From Candidatus Krumholzibacteriia bacterium (GTDB lineage Bacteria; Krumholzibacteriota; Krumholzibacteriia; Krumholzibacteriales; Krumholzibacteriaceae): 64,000 nucleotides of DNA. Shown piece after piece: positions 35,741 to 47,630 of the stretch. The stretch's first letter is position 1; the number at the start of each line of letters is the position of its first letter. Made by a program: the position numbers and the translations under genes. The notes under the pieces were generated by a model. That model was not told the DNA's origin and did no database searches. It saw only the letters and a list, made by a program, of their open reading frames with translations. Location of the stretch: assembly GCA_963836185.1 (NCBI GenBank), contig CAWIIQ010000001.1, forward strand, positions 1,056,001 to 1,120,000, written 5' to 3'.

Positions 35741-35817
35741 TGACAGGAGGAAGGACAGGCGATAAAATATAGAAAATAATGCTCCGGTTGCCATGGGTGG
35801 GGAAAGGAAGTGACGAC

Positions 35818-36789
35818 GTGGGCAATCTAAGGGAAGCTATGCGCCGGGAGCTGCGGCTCCGCAACTACAGTCCGGGCACGATCAGGACATATCTTCAGCA
35901 CATGACAGAATTCACCAGGCACTTCGGCCGAAGTCCGTCCGAACTCGGCAGGGAAGAGATAAACTCCTACCTGCTCCACATGACGGAAGTAAGAAAGGTC
36001 TCCGCCACATACAGGGACCAGGCCATAAGCGCGCTGAAATTCTTCTACGGAAGGGTGCTGAAGAAACAGCTCATCATCGAAGAACTCCCACGTCCGAAGA
36101 AAGAATTCAAACTGCCGTCAGTGCTGAGCACAAAAGAAGTAGCTCGGCTCTTCCAGGCAGTCAGAAACCGGAAGCATCTCACCATCCTGATGCTCCTCTA
36201 TTCCGGTGGTATGAGAGTAAGCGAAGTAGTCAGGCTCAAACCTGAGGACATCGATCCAGAAAGACACCTTATCAGGGTGCGAGGGGGAAAGGGACGGAAG
36301 GACAGGTACACAGTCCTCTCGGATACGGCTCTCGATGTCCTCCGTGATTATTACCTGTCATGGAAGCCGGAATATTTTCTTTTTGAGGGAAACAGGAAAG
36401 GTTCTCATCTGTCGACAAGATCGGTCCAGAACGTCGTTTCAGCGGCCAGAAAGCGTGCCGGGCTGAAGAAGAAGTTCAGCACCCATGTTCTCAGGCACAG
36501 CTTCGCGACGCACCTCCTTGAAAGCGGCACCGATTTAAGGTATATTCAAGAACTACTGGGGCACAAAAGTGCCAGGACGACACAGATCTACACACATGTA
36601 ACACGGAGGGATATCGCACGGATCGTTAGCCCGCTGGACAGGATGATGGAGGGGGAAGCAGCGGCGACAGGACCGATCGGAACATCCGAACGGAAGAAAT
36701 CTCCCACCCACCCCACCCATTTTACTGAACGTCCTCGTCGCAAACGAACCAAAAACCGTCAAAACAACGAACCGGACACACACAAATAA
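35818..36789 (+). CDS. Tyrosine recombinase (integron-integrase-like N-terminal SAM domain; no IntI-specific insertion)
   Basis: Intact R(GMRVSE)-K(KGRKDR)-H-x-x-R(HVLRH)-H(LGH)-Y(TQIY); start GTG 35818 or ATG 35779/35839. Confidence 0.95.
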   Translation: MGNLREAMRRELRLRNYSPGTIRTYLQHMTEFTRHFGRSPSELGREEINSYLLHMTEVRKVSATYRDQAISALKFFYGRVLKKQLIIEELPRPKKEFKLPSVLSTKEVARLFQAVRNRKHLTILMLLYSGGMRVSEVVRLKPEDIDPERHLIRVRGGKGRKDRYTVLSDTALDVLRDYYLSWKPEYFLFEGNRKGSHLSTRSVQNVVSAARKRAGLKKKFSTHVLRHSFATHLLESGTDLRYIQELLGHKSARTTQIYTHVTRRDIARIVSPLDRMMEGEAAATGPIGTSERKKSPTHPTHFTERPRRKRTKNRQNNEPDTHK

Positions 36790-36809
36790 ACTGTTATATG
36801 ATAGCCGAG
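36770..36809 (+). other. attI-like primary recombination site (GTT at 36793)
   Basis: AAATAAACT-GTTATATGATAGCCGAG; right part is the reverse complement (16/17) of the end of cassette 1; no attC hairpin upstream. Confidence 0.75.
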
Positions 36810-41437: not shown

Positions 41438-41576
41438 GGATAACAGAGTGTTCGCGGCTGCAGGCCTTCGGCCTTCGCTCAGATGGCCTTTGTCACGGCG
41501 GCCGCTGGAGCGCCCGCCGCGCCAACCGGGCCTGGCGGCCCGGACGGCCACCTCGCGAACACGACCAATGTTATTC
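41438..41576 (+). repeat. attC-like site 5
   Basis: Near-identical copy. Confidence 0.9.
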
Positions 41577-41999
41577 GCCATGTGGCAGATGAATAAATTT
41601 AACTTCGATTTCTTCTTATTTTTTAGGACTCTTCTTTCCCCGCAGTACAGCCCCATCCAGCCTCAGGGTGACTTCCGGAGTCTCTAAAGCCTGATCGATC
41701 CAGTACCTCATATTTTCTCCGATGTTAAGGCCTAGACTCGTGCCGTAACGGGCCTGAGGGTGGCTTGCGGCTGAGACTGAGATCCTCGATCCTGAGGTTT
41801 TAAGGGGCCGAGATTGGTAGGGGAGAGCTCGTAAGGAACTTGCTTTCAACGATCGGGGCAATTCAGCGTACGACTTCGGGTCGCGCTGTCGCATCTTTAT
41901 CAGCCAAGGGTTGGCTGAAAGACTATTGAACCGGAGAGATTAAAGGATTAGATTTATAGGTGAGGGGTGATCTAGTATGAATTCCACACGGCGTATAAC
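41570..41999 (+). other. Cassette 6: near ORF-less cassette, homologous to cassette 8
   Basis: Bounded by matching inverted ends; shares sequence blocks with 45214-45645. Confidence 0.8.
41926..41954 (+). promoter_or_regulatory. Sigma-70-like promoter in cassette 6
   Basis: TTGAAC-N17-TAGATT, conserved in cassette 8. Confidence 0.65.
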
Positions 42000-42106
42000 A
42001 GAGGTGTTCGCGGCTGCGCATGTCACCCGGCCTGCAGAGCACGCCGGGCGCCAATGCTTCGCGTACACCGCCTGCGGCGGCGTCGCGAACACTCACAATG
42101 TTATAC
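41993..42106 (+). repeat. attC-like site 6 (divergent interior)
   Basis: Same ends and GTGTTCGCG/CGCGAACAC stem, different loop. Confidence 0.85.
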
Positions 42107-42125
42107 GATAAATGCCCTTATTCCT

Positions 42126-42155
42126 TTGACATATTCAATTCTACATAGATAGAAT
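42126..42155 (+). promoter_or_regulatory. Cassette-borne promoter of the kinase gene
   Basis: TTGACA-N18-TAGAAT, 8 nt before ATG, no RBS. Confidence 0.55.
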
Positions 42156-42163
42156 CTCCATAC

Positions 42164-45062
42164 ATGTTAGGGGAAACAATCTCACATTATGAAATTCTCG
42201 AGAAGCTCGGCGAGGGCGGGATGGGCGTAGTCTACCGCGCCCGTGACACGAAGCTCGACCGCGAGGTGGCTATCAAGCTCCTGCCCCCGCACCTGAGCTC
42301 CGATCCCGAGGCGGTAAAGAGGTTCGTCCATGAGGCGAAGACCGCCTCGGCCCTGAACCACTCCGCTATAGGCGTCATCCACGAGATAGACGAGACGGAT
42401 GACGGCCAGACGTTCATCGCAATGGCCCTCTACGAGGGGGGACTCTCAGGGAGAAGCATCGACAGCGGCAGCATGACATCTAGGCGAAGCAGTAACCATA
42501 GCCTCCCAGATAGCCTCGGGTCTCGACCAGGGCCCACGAGAAGGGGATAGTCCACAGGGACATCAAGCCGCAGAACATACTTCTGACCAGAGACGGCGAG
42601 GCGAAGATAATCGACTTCGGCCTAGCGAAGCTCGCCGGAAGGACGAAGCTGACGAGGGACGGGAGTACGCTCGGCACTGCCGCCTACATGTCCCCCGAGC
42701 AGGCGAGGGGAGAAGAGGTCGATCACCGTTCGGACATCTTCTCTCTCGGGACGATCCTGTACGAGATGCTCGCCGGTGAGCCACCATTCAAGGGGGAGCA
42801 CGAGGCGGCGTTGCTCTACGGGATAGTGCACGAGGAGCATGAAGAGATATCGGAGAAGTGCGGGGGCATAGCACCGGAATTGTGCAATGTGGTCGGAAAG
42901 ACGCTGAAGAAGGAAAAGGAAGCAAGGTATCAGAACGCGGCGGACCTGAAAGCTGAATTGAAGAGGTCGAGCACCGGCAGTGTCGATGAGGGCGGACCGA
43001 GGGATACGAAGGACGCTGGAAGAGGTAAAGGGTTCTGGATAGGCATTGCGGCGGTCACCGTGACACTCACAACTGCCGTACTTCTCGTAATGACCGGACG
43101 TGAGCCGGCGCCGCTTACCGCTTCGGAGATGACTCTCGCTGTGGTTGATTTTAATGACCTAGCAACAGAACCGGATCCTATAAAATCCAAGACGATTACA
43201 GAGCTGCTAAATACCTCCCTGGGAGATTTCTGTCCGATACGCGTTCAGAGCCCGGAACGAGTAAGGGAATGTCGAAGACAGCTTTTCGGTTCAACTGAAG
43301 CGCAGATAGAGGAAGGGCAGGAACTGGAGATCGCGCGCAGGAGCGAAGCGACCTATTTGCTTACTGGCAGCATCAGTGTCGTTGGCAACGACGGTTTTAT
43401 CTCTTGGAGGCTCATAGATGTACTAAGTGGGACTATCATCAAGGCCGGAACAGTCGAACCAGGTGAGATGATGGCAGTAGTTGATAAGATCGTGGAGGTC
43501 GTATTGCCGGAGATCGCAGAAGCTTCGGGAGTTGAGCAGACTGCAGAGCAGGTTTCCGTGGCACAATCTCGACATCTTCACAGCAGGCGTTTGAGCATTA
43601 CGTTAGGGGTAAGATAAATCATGACAGCGATCGTCCAGTCGAAGCACTCGATGAATACACGAAAGCTGTCGGATTAGATTCCAGTTTTGCTCTTGCCTGG
43701 TTTGCTATGTCTAGACTCTACTATGGTGCCATGATGATTAGGTATGATCCGGCACTTTATAATAAATACAATGAGCTTGCCTTAAGGTATGAATCCAGGA
43801 TGGGCACCAAGGAGAGGATGCAGCTTCGTGCTATTAATCTTGGAGGAGTCAAAACGATAGAAAAACTCAAGGAAATCCTCGAGCTCTGGCCTGATGACCG
43901 CGAGACGCTGCAGATGCTCGTCCTCAGAACCCACTATAATTGGATGCAAAAAGAATGTATCGAGTACTCTCGAATCGGATTGACGCTATACCCGGAAGAC
44001 CAGGTTTTCGGAGGAAGTATCTATATCACATCTCTTAATAATTTGGGTCTAAGCCAAGAAGCGATGAAGGCGTCCAGAGAATTTATCAGAAAATATCCTG
44101 ACGATTCGGCAGCTTGGCGTTCTCTTGCCGAGACATTTGTGGTCATGGGGCAACCGGACAGTGCCGAGGCGATCTGCAGAATAATTTTGGAGAAATATCC
44201 TGAAGGCAGCCAGAATGCAGAGGCAAGGCGGATGATAGCACGATGTGCATATCTTGCAGGCGATCTAGATGAATCGATTTCAAGGTATGATAGATTATTG
44301 TCAGACGCGAACCTGGATGAATCTACTCGTCAGGAGATTCTTTCTAACTATACTCACATTATAGATCTTACTTATGTATATCGAGAAGCTGGCCGCTACT
44401 ACGACGCCTTGCGGACCTTGAATGAGGCAAGACCGTACTTCGGCAACCGACCTGATCGCTGGGAATTACAAATGGGCTATCTGCTAGTAGATATTGGCAG
44501 GAACAAGAATGCGTTGAAACTCGCTGAAGAGATGCTTGCATCAGATAATATGCCAATGCAGAGGTATGCCAGACGATTCATGGGCAAGGCGCAAGTTAAT
44601 AATGGTGATATCCAAGGTGCTCAGGAAACTGTATCGATACTGGATGGACTTGGCATAGTCAGGGGACCTATCTACAAGTACCATTCATTTTTCACTCAGG
44701 CATATATTGCATTGGCAAGGAATGATGCTTCAGTGTCTCTAAAGCATCTTGATGATGCGGCCCAGATAGTGGGCTTCTCATACTGCATGTTCGGAATCGA
44801 GCTGAAGACATTGCAGGCGGAGGCGAACAGACTGGCAGGGGACCTGGAGGCGGCAGCCTCGATCCATGAAGAACTGCTGAGGATTCATGGCGGACATGCA
44901 TTGTCACACTTCGAACTCGGTAAACTGTATGAGGCAATGAGAAGAACGGACGAGGCAAAACTGCACTATAATAGATTCCTAGAGATGTGGAATAACGCTG
45001 ATGATGGATTACCTCAACCTGCACTCGCGAGGGAGAGACTGACAGCGCTTAAAGGTGTTTAA
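42164..45062 (+). CDS. Cassette 7: Hanks-type Ser/Thr kinase-TM-TPR protein; several frameshifts
   Basis: [38 protein letters not shown]-terminus. Confidence 0.85.
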
Positions 45063-45081
45063 ATAGAGCAGGGCTTTCATC

Positions 45082-45220
45082 GCATAACAGTGTGTTCGCG
45101 GCTACAGGCCTTCGGCCCTTCGCTCAGATGGCCTTTGTCACGGCAGCCGCAGGGCGACTGCCGCGCCAACCGGGCCTTGAGGCCCGGACGGCCACCTCGC
45201 GAACACGACCAATGTTATCC
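45082..45220 (+). repeat. attC-like site 7
   Basis: Near-identical copy. Confidence 0.9.
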
Positions 45221-45645
45221 GCTATGTGGCAGCTGATTGAATTTATCTTCGATCTTTTCTTTTTATTGGGACCCTTCTTCCCGCCCATCCCAACCATTAC
45301 CAGCCGGAGGTCGACTTCCGAGAGTCTCTAGAGCTAGTTCTGCAAGGTGACGAGTCCAACCCCTGTAAGAATAATGCCTCTATAGATGATCCGGCCTGAG
45401 GGTGGCTTGCGAGGCGCGACTGAGATCCTCGGGTCAAGAGGCTTTAAGGGCCGAAATAGGGGTAGGGGAGCGATCGTCAGGGACTTGCTATCATCGGTCT
45501 GAGGCAGGTTCATCTCTCGACTTCGGGAGGCGCAGTCGCAGTTCTATCAACGGGTCAACGCCGAAAGACTATTGAAAGTTCGAGATTAACGGTATAGATT
45601 TAGAGGTGAGGGGTGCCTATATATGAATTCCACACAGCGGATAAC
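45214..45645 (+). other. Cassette 8: near ORF-less cassette, homologous to cassette 6
   Basis: Ends GTTATCCGCTATGTGG / CCACACAGCGGATAAC; shared blocks with cassette 6. Confidence 0.8.
45572..45600 (+). promoter_or_regulatory. Sigma-70-like promoter in cassette 8
   Basis: TTGAAA-N17-TAGATT. Confidence 0.65.
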
Positions 45646-45767
45646 AGCAGTGTTCGCGGCTACGGGCCTTGAGGCCCTCGCTCAGATGGCCTTTACCGGC
45701 CTTTGGCGCGCCGGCCAACCGGGCCTGAGGCCCGACGACCAACTCGTTAACATGACCACTGTTATGG
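45639..45767 (+). repeat. attC-like site 8 (degenerate right arm)
   Basis: Left arm canonical; right arm CTCGTTAACATGACCACTGTTAT. Confidence 0.75.
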
Positions 45768-46291
45768 AGGGACGTTTTAGAAAATGTAACATACGAATCA
45801 TTCTGGTTGTTCTCGTCTTAACTTCAGCTCTTATATCCTGTGGAGAGGATAGCTGTGAGTGCCCTACACCTAATCCTATTGAATACACCAGCGTTGTGTT
45901 CTACTACAAAGATCATCCATATTGCTATTCAAGTACTGCTGGATTAGAGGTAGAGCTTTATGTCGGTGATGAACTCATAGGGTATTGGCATTATGGCTCT
46001 AATCCAGCAGATCCAAATCTAGATTATCCTAATTCGCAACCTTTTCCGGTTGAGCTCGGAAGTGCCTTGAACCTTGAATTCAGGTATTGGGATAAATCAG
46101 GTCATGAGATGAGAGACACAGCAAATCTCATCATGGATGATGAAGATTGCACTTACGTCAGTTTCTTTGCCGACATAGAAAATCCCTGCCTGGGTGCTGA
46201 GTTATGTGATAGTTGTATTGTTTTTGAGATCGATGAAAACATGAAGTGTGAGGGTGCTGATTCAATCTATGTCGCTGTAGTGACTAATTGA
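45764..46291 (+). CDS. Cassette 9: Cys-rich lipoprotein
   Basis: LISC lipobox; start uncertain. Confidence 0.7.
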   Translation: MEGRFRKCNIRIILVVLVLTSALISCGEDSCECPTPNPIEYTSVVFYYKDHPYCYSSTAGLEVELYVGDELIGYWHYGSNPADPNLDYPNSQPFPVELGSALNLEFRYWDKSGHEMRDTANLIMDDEDCTYVSFFADIENPCLGAELCDSCIVFEIDENMKCEGADSIYVAVVTN

Positions 46292-46304
46292 TGGAGACAG
46301 CGGC

Positions 46305-46445
46305 ATATAACAGTGTGTTCGCGGCTACGGGCCTTGCGGCCCTTCGCTCAGATGGCCTTTGTCACGGCGGCCGCAGAAGCGCCCGCCGCGCCAACCGGGC
46401 CTGGCGGCCCGGACGGCCACCTCGCGAACACGACCAATGTTATCC
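46305..46445 (+). repeat. attC-like site 9
   Basis: Near-identical copy. Confidence 0.9.
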
Positions 46446-47039: not shown

Positions 47040-47075
47040 TTGACAGATATGCATATATGATGCATACTGATGCAT
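47040..47075 (+). promoter_or_regulatory. vapBC promoter/operator
   Basis: TTGACA-N17-CATACT overlapped by three ATGCAT palindromes. Confidence 0.65.
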
Positions 47076-47271
47076 ATGAGAACTACACTGAATATTGACG
47101 ATGATCTGATTCGCAAGGCAGCGAAGATGACAGGGATCAGCGAGAAGACTTCCCTGGTACGCCTCGGGCTTGAAGCATTGATCGCTCTTGAGAGCGCGAG
47201 AAGGCTAGCAGCTCTTGGCGGCACAGAGAAAGATCTTGGCCCTGATTCCTCGCAAACGAACGAGTTCGTGA
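47076..47271 (+). CDS. vapB: Cassette 11: VapB antitoxin (RHH type)
   Basis: MRTTLNIDDDL..EKTSLVRLGLEALI; apparent +1 indel fuses it to vapC. Confidence 0.85.
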
Positions 47272-47273
47272 GT

Positions 47274-47630
47274 ATGATCCTGGCTGATACATCTGTATGG
47301 ATCGATCATCTTCGCAATGGAAACAAGCGGATGGCTCTTTTTCTGAACGAAGGTGTCGTTTTGTGTCATCCTTTCATACTCGGGGAATTGGCCTGTGGGA
47401 ACCTCAAAAACAGAGCTAAAATACTCGATATGCTTGCTTCCCTTCCGACAATGCCAGTTGCAGAGCACAGTGAAGTGCTTGATTTCATTTCCCGATACAA
47501 ATTCCAAGGGAAGGGTATAGGGTGGATCGATGCCCATCTGTTGGCATCAACATTTCTGGCGAAAAGCCGAATCTGGACTCTCGACAAATCTTTACTAAAG
47601 ATAGCAAAAGACCTGAAGGTCTCAATATAG
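47274..47630 (+). CDS. vapC: Cassette 11: VapC PIN-domain toxin
   Basis: MILADTSVWIDHL, GELACG, IDAHLLAS, WTLDK. Confidence 0.9.
   Translation: MILADTSVWIDHLRNGNKRMALFLNEGVVLCHPFILGELACGNLKNRAKILDMLASLPTMPVAEHSEVLDFISRYKFQGKGIGWIDAHLLASTFLAKSRIWTLDKSLLKIAKDLKVSI

Follow-up and report, generated by a model that had tools for sequence, protein, structure and literature searches.

Two homologous gene-less integron cassettes of a Candidatus Krumholzibacteriota bacterium as candidate mobile promoter and leader modules

Background

How are the genes deep inside a long integron array expressed, and how is an array expressed at all when its integrase gene is read in the same direction as the cassettes? 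Both are open points in integron biology, and both are raised by a chromosomal integron in the genome of an uncultured marine-sediment Ca. Krumholzibacteriota bacterium, located within a stretch of 64,000 nucleotides (nt) that we analysed as a whole (positions 1,056,001 to 1,120,000 of contig CAWIIQ010000001.1, assembly GCA_963836185.1; 'the window' below, with positions counted from its first letter). The array contains two cassettes without a gene, namely the sixth and the eighth (cassettes 6 and 8, numbered from attI, the GTTAT of which ends at 36797). By comparing these cassettes with their homologues we arrived at an explanation that we hold with somewhat better than even confidence: the two would be copies of a mobile gene-less module that combines a promoter, a ribosome-binding site (RBS) and a leader, and that restarts the expression of the cassettes lying downstream.

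In classical integrons the platform promoter Pc has a fixed place in intI or attI and diverges from the transcription of intI. Like Pc, the module proposed here would, from the array head, drive transcription of cassettes that lack a promoter; it differs from Pc in that intI is co-oriented, with its stop codon 3 nt before the attI GTTAT, and in that the candidate promoter is a cassette, which may take any position (6 and 8 in this array). Vibrio is to date the only group in which promoter cassettes have been demonstrated, and whether they represent selected devices or spurious AT-rich initiation is debated there. According to the parts of the text available, the majority of 29 gene-less Vibrio superintegron cassettes put to the test were active as promoters on the sense strand (Blanco et al., Nucleic Acids Res 2024, PMC11014356).

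Results and discussion

A conserved promoter-like signature at the end of two gene-less cassettes

The integron holds 15 cassettes and 15 attC sites (core TGTTCGCGGCT) between 37267 and 50477. Its attI overlaps the 3' end of the integrase gene, with the GTTAT at 36793-36797 following 3 nt past the stop codon (...CAAATAAACTGTTAT), and therefore offers no space in which a cassette promoter of the platform could lie between gene and site; the 14-nt intI/attI junction AAATAAACTGTTAT is common to six species of the genus. Cassettes 6 and 8 begin at the GTTAT of 41570-41574 and 45214-45218, respectively, and each ends in an attC of its own (coordinates of this and other features are given in Table 1). 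Their bodies are 71% identical over 418 nt according to BLAST (E 3e-44) and 68% identical in a 7-way alignment, and BLAST recovered no other copies from their own 3.5-Mb genome.

A preliminary description, made from the letters of this stretch, had reported that both cassettes end in TTGAA(C/A)-N17-TAGATT and that the hexamers and their spacing are kept while the spacer drifts. Both statements proved correct, and the second extends well beyond the two cassettes from which it was drawn. We counted invariant columns over seven full copies, i.e. cassettes 6 and 8, G049:C114, G051:C41, L012, L013 and L014, in all of which the hexamers, the spacing, a Shine-Dalgarno (SD)-like block and the leader ATG are present. 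The -35 hexamer is invariant at 5/6 columns and the -10 hexamer at 6/6 (11/12 together), against 4/17 columns in the 17-nt spacer between them; the 5 nt after the -10 hexamer are invariant at 4/5 columns, the SD block at 9/11, and the ATG throughout, with nearly all columns variable in the 7-nt spacer that separates SD and ATG. None of these seven parts contains an indel, and the eight indel sites that distinguish cassettes 6 and 8 all fall outside the two fixed-length spacers. A fragment that represents the 3' end (L011) likewise keeps TAGATT, SD and ATG. When both strands were scanned, TTGAAN-17-TAGATT was the sole sigma-70-like match that stands in register in 7/7 copies, the runner-up reaching 3/7, and no such match on the minus strand is kept in even 3/7 copies.

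The signature is of a kind that the host can be expected to read. Host promoters are canonical, as judged by the matches of at least 10/12 to TTGACA-16/18-TATAAT in 14 out of 47 regions upstream of tRNA genes, and TAGATT itself is the best -10 hexamer at three of those genes (tRNA-Lys, tRNA-Glu and tRNA-Leu). Likewise, the 3' end of the host 16S rRNA (GGATCACCTCCTTTCT) carries the canonical CCUCC anti-SD tail.

Conservation is distributed unevenly over the element. Overall identity between copies is 67-90%, to be compared with 64% for the third codon positions of intI between two of the species. The mean pairwise identity amounts to 0.87-0.91 in the -35 flank, in the -10/SD block and in an interior block (columns 316-345), to 0.72-0.80 over most of the remaining element, and to 0.58 (down to 0.29) in a segment of 60 nt; runs of 9-14 columns are invariant across the seven copies. 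This pattern points to some constraint beyond the last 75 nt of the element, and the interior block is possibly the site of a regulator. The 5' ~100 nt of both copies are pyrimidine-rich and marked by a strong excess of C over G, the (C-G)/(C+G) skew of 0.42-0.44 in 80-nt windows being reached by 0.94% of the windows of the genome, and form a possible anti-SD region or, if the RNA is untranslated there, a possible Rho-loading (rut-like) region. Inspection by eye of the T-rich 5' region gave nothing convincing by way of a LexA-type box or an intrinsic terminator.

A mobile family that recurs at the head of arrays

Homologues were sought in 208 genomes of the phylum with BLAST and in metagenomes by a single scan with a 21-nt pattern. 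Within the phylum scan the element occurs only in its own genus, in 4/7 species, as the full copies G049:C114 (79%) and G051:C41 (74%) and as 5' fragments that are ended by contig ends or an insertion (G053:C5, G053:C129 and G049:C35). The metagenome scan added four contigs, of which three hold full copies (L012, L013 and L014) and one the 3' end mentioned above; marine-sediment metagenome contigs contain both cassette-6-like and cassette-8-like variants. Three matches of 22-25 nt in other genera (E 0.005-0.009) were taken as chance. When 151 sampled genomes were scanned with a covariance model built, from sequence only, on the 3' 134 nt, G000 and G051 alone were retrieved; the best of the other matches (G197, E 9e-5) was rejected since it lies inside a protein-coding region.

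The element behaves as a mobile unit, in the sense that it is found in varied array positions and contexts. At least two copies are present in three of the four species that carry the family. For eleven copies the upstream context is known: five directly follow an attI core (G049:C35, G051:C41, G053:C5, L013 and L014), five follow an attC (cassettes 6 and 8, L012, G053:C129 and the second copy in L003), and one, in L003, borders ordinary chromosomal genes and opens an array in which that second copy comes next. Four of the five attI-adjacent copies have a confirmed integrase gene upstream; for L013 the upstream sequence is 70 nt only, with an identical 15-nt core. Considered per species, the family provides the first cassette in three of the six species with an attI junction (G049, G051 and G053), the first position being taken by ordinary gene cassettes in G000, G048 and G050. 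In metagenome contigs, moreover, the attC end of cassette 6 is joined to its own start (42095 to 41566) at 100% identity, and also to a diverged copy. The former joint is a circle or a tandem copy. A further joint, 41466>42057, which would represent an 'empty site' devoid of cassette 6, was left unused because its shorter side measures 30 letters and lies in repeated attC sequence.

A leader that crosses the attC

The SD-like block and the ATG open a leader ORF (open reading frame) that enters the attC. In the frame of this ATG the R'' box is read as ATA ACA, and the frame is open in 14/14 attCs of the array, the TAA-containing frame being closed in all of them. Among the five copies with readable downstream sequence, the leader crosses the attC in four and is in frame with the next gene in the fifth (cassette 8), so that in terms of sequence the arrangement is that of an SD-led short ORF reaching the next cassette, of the ORF-11 type. 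In the four that cross, the stop lies 5 nt (cassette 6), 9 nt (L014), 26 nt (L013) or 29 nt (L011) past the attC, and in L013 (ATGA) and L011 (TAATG) it overlaps the start codon of the next gene.

The leader of cassette 8 deserves separate attention. Its attC has the weakest predicted fold among the full-length attCs (-28.8 kcal/mol, as compared to -36 to -55 for the others) and a mutated right arm, and cassette 9 behind it is the one cassette that lacks complementarity between its ends (4/14 positions). Cassettes 8 and 9 look like a fused unit that is no longer separable (attC of cassette 8 and cassette 9, 45641-46306). The lipoprotein gene of cassette 9 has an ATG of its own (45765) that lies partly on the GTTAT core and is not preceded by an SD. 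The SD and ATG of the element may be the sole translation signals of that gene. In its weak attC, the missing end complementarity of cassette 9 and the one spanning ORF, the pair resembles the fused cassettes that arise from attC decay as portrayed in the available text of PMC4670013, with the difference that here the upstream partner is a gene-less promoter/leader module and not a second gene.

A candidate mechanism and the points that weigh against it

On the explanation that we favour, RNA polymerase with the housekeeping sigma factor would start about 7 nt after TAGATT, i.e. near 41961 in cassette 6 and near 45607 in cassette 8, and ribosomes would load on the resulting short mRNA leader at the SD and ATG. 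Reading the attC in its one invariably open frame, these ribosomes would terminate close to, or at, the start of the next cassette, and their passage would prevent the attC hairpin from folding and shield the transcript. A member of the family in the first position would in this way act as a portable cassette promoter for a platform that has no space for its own between gene and site. As to the upstream 350 nt, our guess is that they might combine regulatory DNA with an untranslated, C-rich stretch on which Rho terminates the transcripts that arrive from upstream, ahead of the restart.

A wider generalisation is conceivable, which we regard as tentative and on balance doubtful: integrons with an array-facing integrase and no platform promoter may recruit a dedicated mobile restart cassette, in which a Rho-type end is followed by promoter, SD and ATG and by ribosomes that open the attC, and which is kept at, or returns to, the first position.

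Several observations weigh against the proposed promoter function and have to be set beside the sequence-level support for mobile promoter modules, as the preliminary description had called the cassettes, that comes from their conservation, from the sigma-70-type promoters of the host and from their position at array heads, where the family is found far more frequently than chance placement of a cassette would predict. Taken singly, the promoter-like sites are unremarkable, the cassette-8 site scoring 9/12 and the cassette-6 site 8/12 against the consensus, and matches of such quality occur near chance density (28 in 14 kb vs 21 +/- 4.7 in shuffles); the case therefore rests on the comparative pattern across homologues. 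That pattern has its own limits. The seven copies are related and hence do not amount to seven independent observations, and from the -10 hexamer through the SD all of the sequence counts as invariant, so that conservation does not single out the hexamers there. The ~350 nt of partly conserved sequence upstream are superfluous for a plain promoter and stay unexplained by this reading. In the Vibrio study, in the parts of its text available, promoters called in silico in gene-less cassettes did not agree with measured activity or start sites (PMC11014356). The cassette 6 promoter, furthermore, has no obvious beneficiary: cassette 7 behind it is a broken gene with a stronger site of its own. Part of the enrichment in first position may go back to a single ancestral arrangement that was passed on vertically, and a better assembly and binning of integrase-linked contigs in metagenome-assembled genomes than of inner cassettes may contribute as well.

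The geometry of the leader is to be read with the same reserve. That a leader ORF runs through the attC, and that in cassette 8 it is in frame with the next gene (45623-46291), had both been put forward in the preliminary description; the frame is indeed open and does read through, yet openness is generic (frame 0 is open in 14/14 attCs) and the in-frame arrangement occurs at the control rate. Specifically, the element shows one in-frame case plus two overlaps among five, as compared to two plus three (ATGA in each of the three) among ten controls, an outcome that short cassette leaders give in any case. We consequently dropped translational coupling between leader and next gene as evidence, the same geometry being seen at 3/10 control attCs. 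The geometry is compatible with the delivery of ribosomes by the leader and provides no evidence for it.

Absence of a conserved gene and of a conserved RNA fold

The two cassettes had originally been introduced as homologous units of ~430 bp without a long ORF. Their places and their homology (68-71%) stand; the absence of a long ORF has to be qualified for cassette 6, which holds an ORF of 92 amino acids (aa) on the minus strand (41616-41894) and one of 79 aa with its start in the attC upstream. The homologues retain neither of them, the 92-aa ORF measuring 63 aa in G049 and being broken in G051. The working rule for gene-less cassettes given in the available text of Blanco et al. 2024 (PMC11014356) demands that there be no ORF of at least 70 aa, and cassette 6 exceeds this limit by the letter, though in substance it is non-coding. 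The fraction of variable columns is flat over the three codon phases (0.48/0.51/0.53 and 0.65/0.56/0.59), and a Pfam scan of six ORFs gave no match at E <= 1. A protein search with the 92-aa ORF, confined to lengths of 50-161 aa, likewise brought up no relative at E <= 0.001.

Tests at the RNA level were negative as well. There is no Rfam match at E <= 1 over positions 30000-64000 of the window (34 kb). A RAGATH-30 match on the minus strand of cassette 6, obtained in Rfam close-ups with E <= 10 (E 0.11; 21 bits vs a gathering score of 59.5), was rejected as chance, being missing from L004 and eight further loci (nine other loci scanned). Single-sequence folds of both copies on both strands are no stabler than those of shuffles (z -0.3 to -1.7), and RNAalifold, applied to 16 windows of 120 nt on both strands of the 7-copy alignment with column shuffles as the control, found no conserved local structure (structure conservation index (SCI) 0.15-0.54, z -1.5 to +1.5). 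Nothing of the kind of a structured non-coding RNA or riboswitch emerged; long-range helices were limited to the generic lengthening of the attC stem and to an anti-SD pairing with weak support. Both cassettes are thus non-coding and lack a detectable conserved RNA fold.

The anti-SD pairing is the basis of a first alternative, in which transcription from upstream (intI or the earlier cassettes) turns the entire cassette into one long leader RNA that acts in cis and whose 5' pyrimidine tract pairs with the SD some 330 nt away and thereby gates the leader ORF and the next cassette, the hexamers being incidental. RNAalifold pairs columns 65-79 (..ACCCTTC..TC) with columns 408-420 (GA.GAGGGGT..), 96% of the helix cells are paired as compared to 40-60% in slid controls, three one-sided changes keep a G-U on the plus strand (they would give A-C on the minus strand), two pairs change on both sides, and the invariance of SD and ATG would follow equally well. 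The helix was, however, scored on the very alignment from which it was derived, a pyrimidine tract readily pairs with a purine-rich SD by chance, and one of the two 'compensatory' pairs adjoins alignment gaps. Moreover, such an RNA sits badly with the absence of conserved local structure, with folds that do no better than shuffles and with the empty Rfam search, and it leaves unexplained why invariant hexamers surround a drifting spacer with a fixed length of 17 nt. We consider this alternative unlikely.

Equally improbable, in our estimate, is that the family is a neutral relic, i.e. that its gene was lost long ago, that the cassette spreads neutrally, and that the promoter-like and SD-like motifs are chance features frozen by recent ancestry. 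The identity between copies is only moderately above that of the third positions of intI, some gene-less cassettes of Vibrio are decayed genes (PMC11014356, in the text available), and this same array has another decayed gene in cassette 7. Against a relic speak the strongly uneven rates (58%, down to 29%, in the 60-nt segment vs 87-91% in the conserved blocks, with 9-14-column invariant runs), the two spacers that are fixed in length despite eight indel sites elsewhere, the longest ORF being without a protein relative (in the length band searched and in Pfam), and the presence of two or more copies in most carrier species together with their recurrence at array heads.

Extension of the attC stem

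Of the 15 cassettes of the array, 12 begin (behind GTTAT) and end (ahead of ATAAC) with stretches of 14 nt that are complementary to each other at 8-13 positions, and all 12 have the same A-vs-G mismatch at position 6, seen as a C.A mismatch in the top strand and as a G.T wobble in the bottom one. In the excised circle the attC stem would thereby gain ~11-13 bp, and the asymmetry of the mismatch could help strand choice. In the gene-less family the terminal helix (first 10 nt with last 10 nt) shows two compensatory column pairs among the seven copies according to RNAalifold. The CCACAC(N)GCG(N) at the end of the element is the 3' arm of the extended stem, which pairs with the first 11 nt of the cassette, and the conservation of TTCCACAC after the ATG is due to this stem extension; it is a feature of the recombination site and not an expression signal. 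The preliminary description had listed AGGTGAGGGGTG and ATGAATTCCACA together as reading into the attC. Both are found in place and the SD in the former is kept, but ATGAATTCCACA is in part no expression signal, its CCACAC being the stem arm found in 12/15 cassettes.

The termini raise the question whether the interior, too, acts as DNA in recombination. It might contain accessory sites for the integrase or for host factors that favour excision and re-insertion at attI, which would produce a bias for the first position with no role in expression. The attI-adjacent position of 5/11 context-known copies, the tandem or circular forms in metagenomes, the 11-bp stem extension with its compensatory changes and an interior near-repeat (GCCTCAGGGCG / GCCTGAGGGCG) are in line with this idea; the extension is nevertheless generic (12/15 cassettes), and the conservation pattern of promoter, SD and ATG would be left without explanation. 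We know of no integron cassette that needs internal accessory sites, and we rate this possibility below the two preceding ones. That the element encodes a small RNA on its minus strand, or an antisense promoter by which the cassette upstream of it (intI, for a copy in first position) is silenced, is very improbable: an antisense-promoter cassette is known in Vibrio (F1; PMC11014356, in the available text), and in cassette 6 the minus strand is a little more stable in its fold than shuffled sequence (z -1.7) and gave the weak RAGATH-30 match (E 0.11), but no sigma-70-like match on that strand is kept in even 3/7 copies, RAGATH-30 is missing from the nine other loci scanned, the minus-strand SCI and z-scores are at background, and the wobble pattern favours the plus strand.

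Relation to known cassette promoters and short ORFs

The reading of cassettes 6 and 8 as mobile promoter modules places them beside the gene-less promoter cassettes of Vibrio (PMC11014356, as far as its available text goes), with which they share that they are bounded by attC sites, lack a gene, reside in a sedentary chromosomal integron and have a sense promoter, a predicted one in our case, that faces downstream. The two differ in how the promoter is known: by measured activity in Vibrio, with scattered and unpredictable starts for which AT-rich spurious initiation is discussed, and from comparative sequence here. They differ also in that one defined -35/-10 pair is conserved here over seven diverged copies, with an SD and ATG behind it that are conserved too. 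Finally, the present family belongs to another phylum, has a co-oriented integrase and recurrently constitutes the first cassette by attI.

The leader has a counterpart in the short ORFs of attI1 (ORF-11 and ORF-17) and of attC, which raise the translation of the next cassette (Hanau-Bercot 2002, Papagiannitsis 2017 and Jacquier 2009, as cited in the part of PMC11511950 available). In both cases a short ORF led by an SD spans a recombination site or closely precedes it, where it is thought to deliver ribosomes or to open structure. In contrast to those short ORFs, which belong to the platform or the attC, the SD and ATG described here sit with a promoter on a separate mobile cassette; the downstream effect is a prediction, with the geometry at control level.

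The family combines both parts, which are known separately, on one mobile unit that is tied to the array head; the titles and opening lines of abstracts of the integron papers retrieved yielded no description of a first-position promoter cassette. A gene-less family that at ~70% identity keeps exactly the promoter, RBS and start parts, and that heads the array in half of the related species, bears on the debate about the Vibrio cassettes, in that its conservation pattern is comparative evidence of selection for such modules. It also offers a concrete, clonable unit with which the idea of a portable array promoter can be examined.

Features of the locus and side observations

Table 1. Position of the features of the integron, of cassettes 6 and 8 and of their leaders within the window
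Feature	Position	Strand	Remarks
Integron integrase (tyrosine recombinase) gene, array-facing (co-oriented)	35779..36789	+	Pfam Phage_integrase (E 4e-42) and Phage_int_SAM_4 (E 5e-20)
Cassette 6, mobile unit (530 nt)	41571..42100	+	gene-less body 41575-41994 and own 110-nt attC 41995-42104
Cassette 6, 5' arm TCGCCATGTGG	41575..41585	+	pairs with 41984-41994; 10/14 complementary, including the array-wide A/G mismatch at position 6
Cassette 6, pyrimidine-rich C>G stretch	41586..41690	+	moderately conserved; (C-G)/(C+G) skew 0.44 in 80 nt
Cassette 6, hypervariable segment	41694..41753	+	approximate position, hand-converted from alignment columns 136-195; mean pairwise identity 0.58, minimum 0.29
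Cassette 6, most conserved interior block CGACTTCGGG.GCGC.GTCGCA	41871..41893	+	~45-55 nt upstream of -35; columns 316-345; mean pairwise identity 0.88
Cassette 6, promoter-like site	TTGAAC 41926-41931, TAGATT 41949-41954	+	17-nt spacer; predicted start ~41961
Cassette 6, SD-like block AGGTGAGGGGTG	41958..41969	+	9/11 columns invariant
Cassette 6, leader ATG	41977	+	invariant across copies
Cassette 6, leader ORF (44 codons)	41977..42111	+	runs from the invariant ATG across the entire attC; its stop codon starts 5 nt beyond that site
Cassette 6, 3' arm CCACACGGCGT	41984..41994	+	extended attC stem
Cassette 8, unit	45215..45761	+	gene-less body 45219-45640 and degenerate attC 45641-45765
Cassette 8, promoter-like site	TTGAAA 45572-45577, TAGATT 45595-45600	+	17-nt spacer; predicted start ~45607
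Cassette 8, SD-like block AGGTGAGGGGTG	45604..45615	+	from the alignment of copies
Cassette 8, leader ATG	45623	+	invariant across copies
Cassette 8, leader ORF (222 aa)	45623..46291	+	in frame across the degenerate attC into the cassette 9 lipoprotein gene

The attC sites of the array fold better as the bottom than as the top strand in 13/14 cases, and the common type among them measures 135-137 nt. The attC that belongs to the gene-less family is of a shorter type (110 nt in cassette 6 and ~85 nt in G049 and G051), all of these sharing ...CACCGCCTGCGGCGGCG..., and a variant in the metagenomes has the element joined to the common attC type instead (joint 42015>41472). The break in the copy of G053:C129 (L009, ~15-520), in which ~250 nt are homologous to the element and are followed by unrelated sequence resembling the start of a helix-turn-helix transposase gene, is probably due to an insertion sequence inside the element.

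Two other cassettes may be mentioned. Cassette 7 (42105-45083; 2979 nt) has a strong promoter-like site of its own (TTGACA-18-TAGAAT at 42126-42155, 11/12), and its Ser/Thr-kinase and TPR gene is broken into three ORFs, which correspond to positions 1-86 and 164-253 of the kinase profile and then to the TPR part. Cassette 11 (47070-47630) contains a single ORF of 186 aa that matches the VapB antitoxin with residues 3-44 and a PIN domain with residues 70-180, so that a toxin-antitoxin pair reads as one frame.

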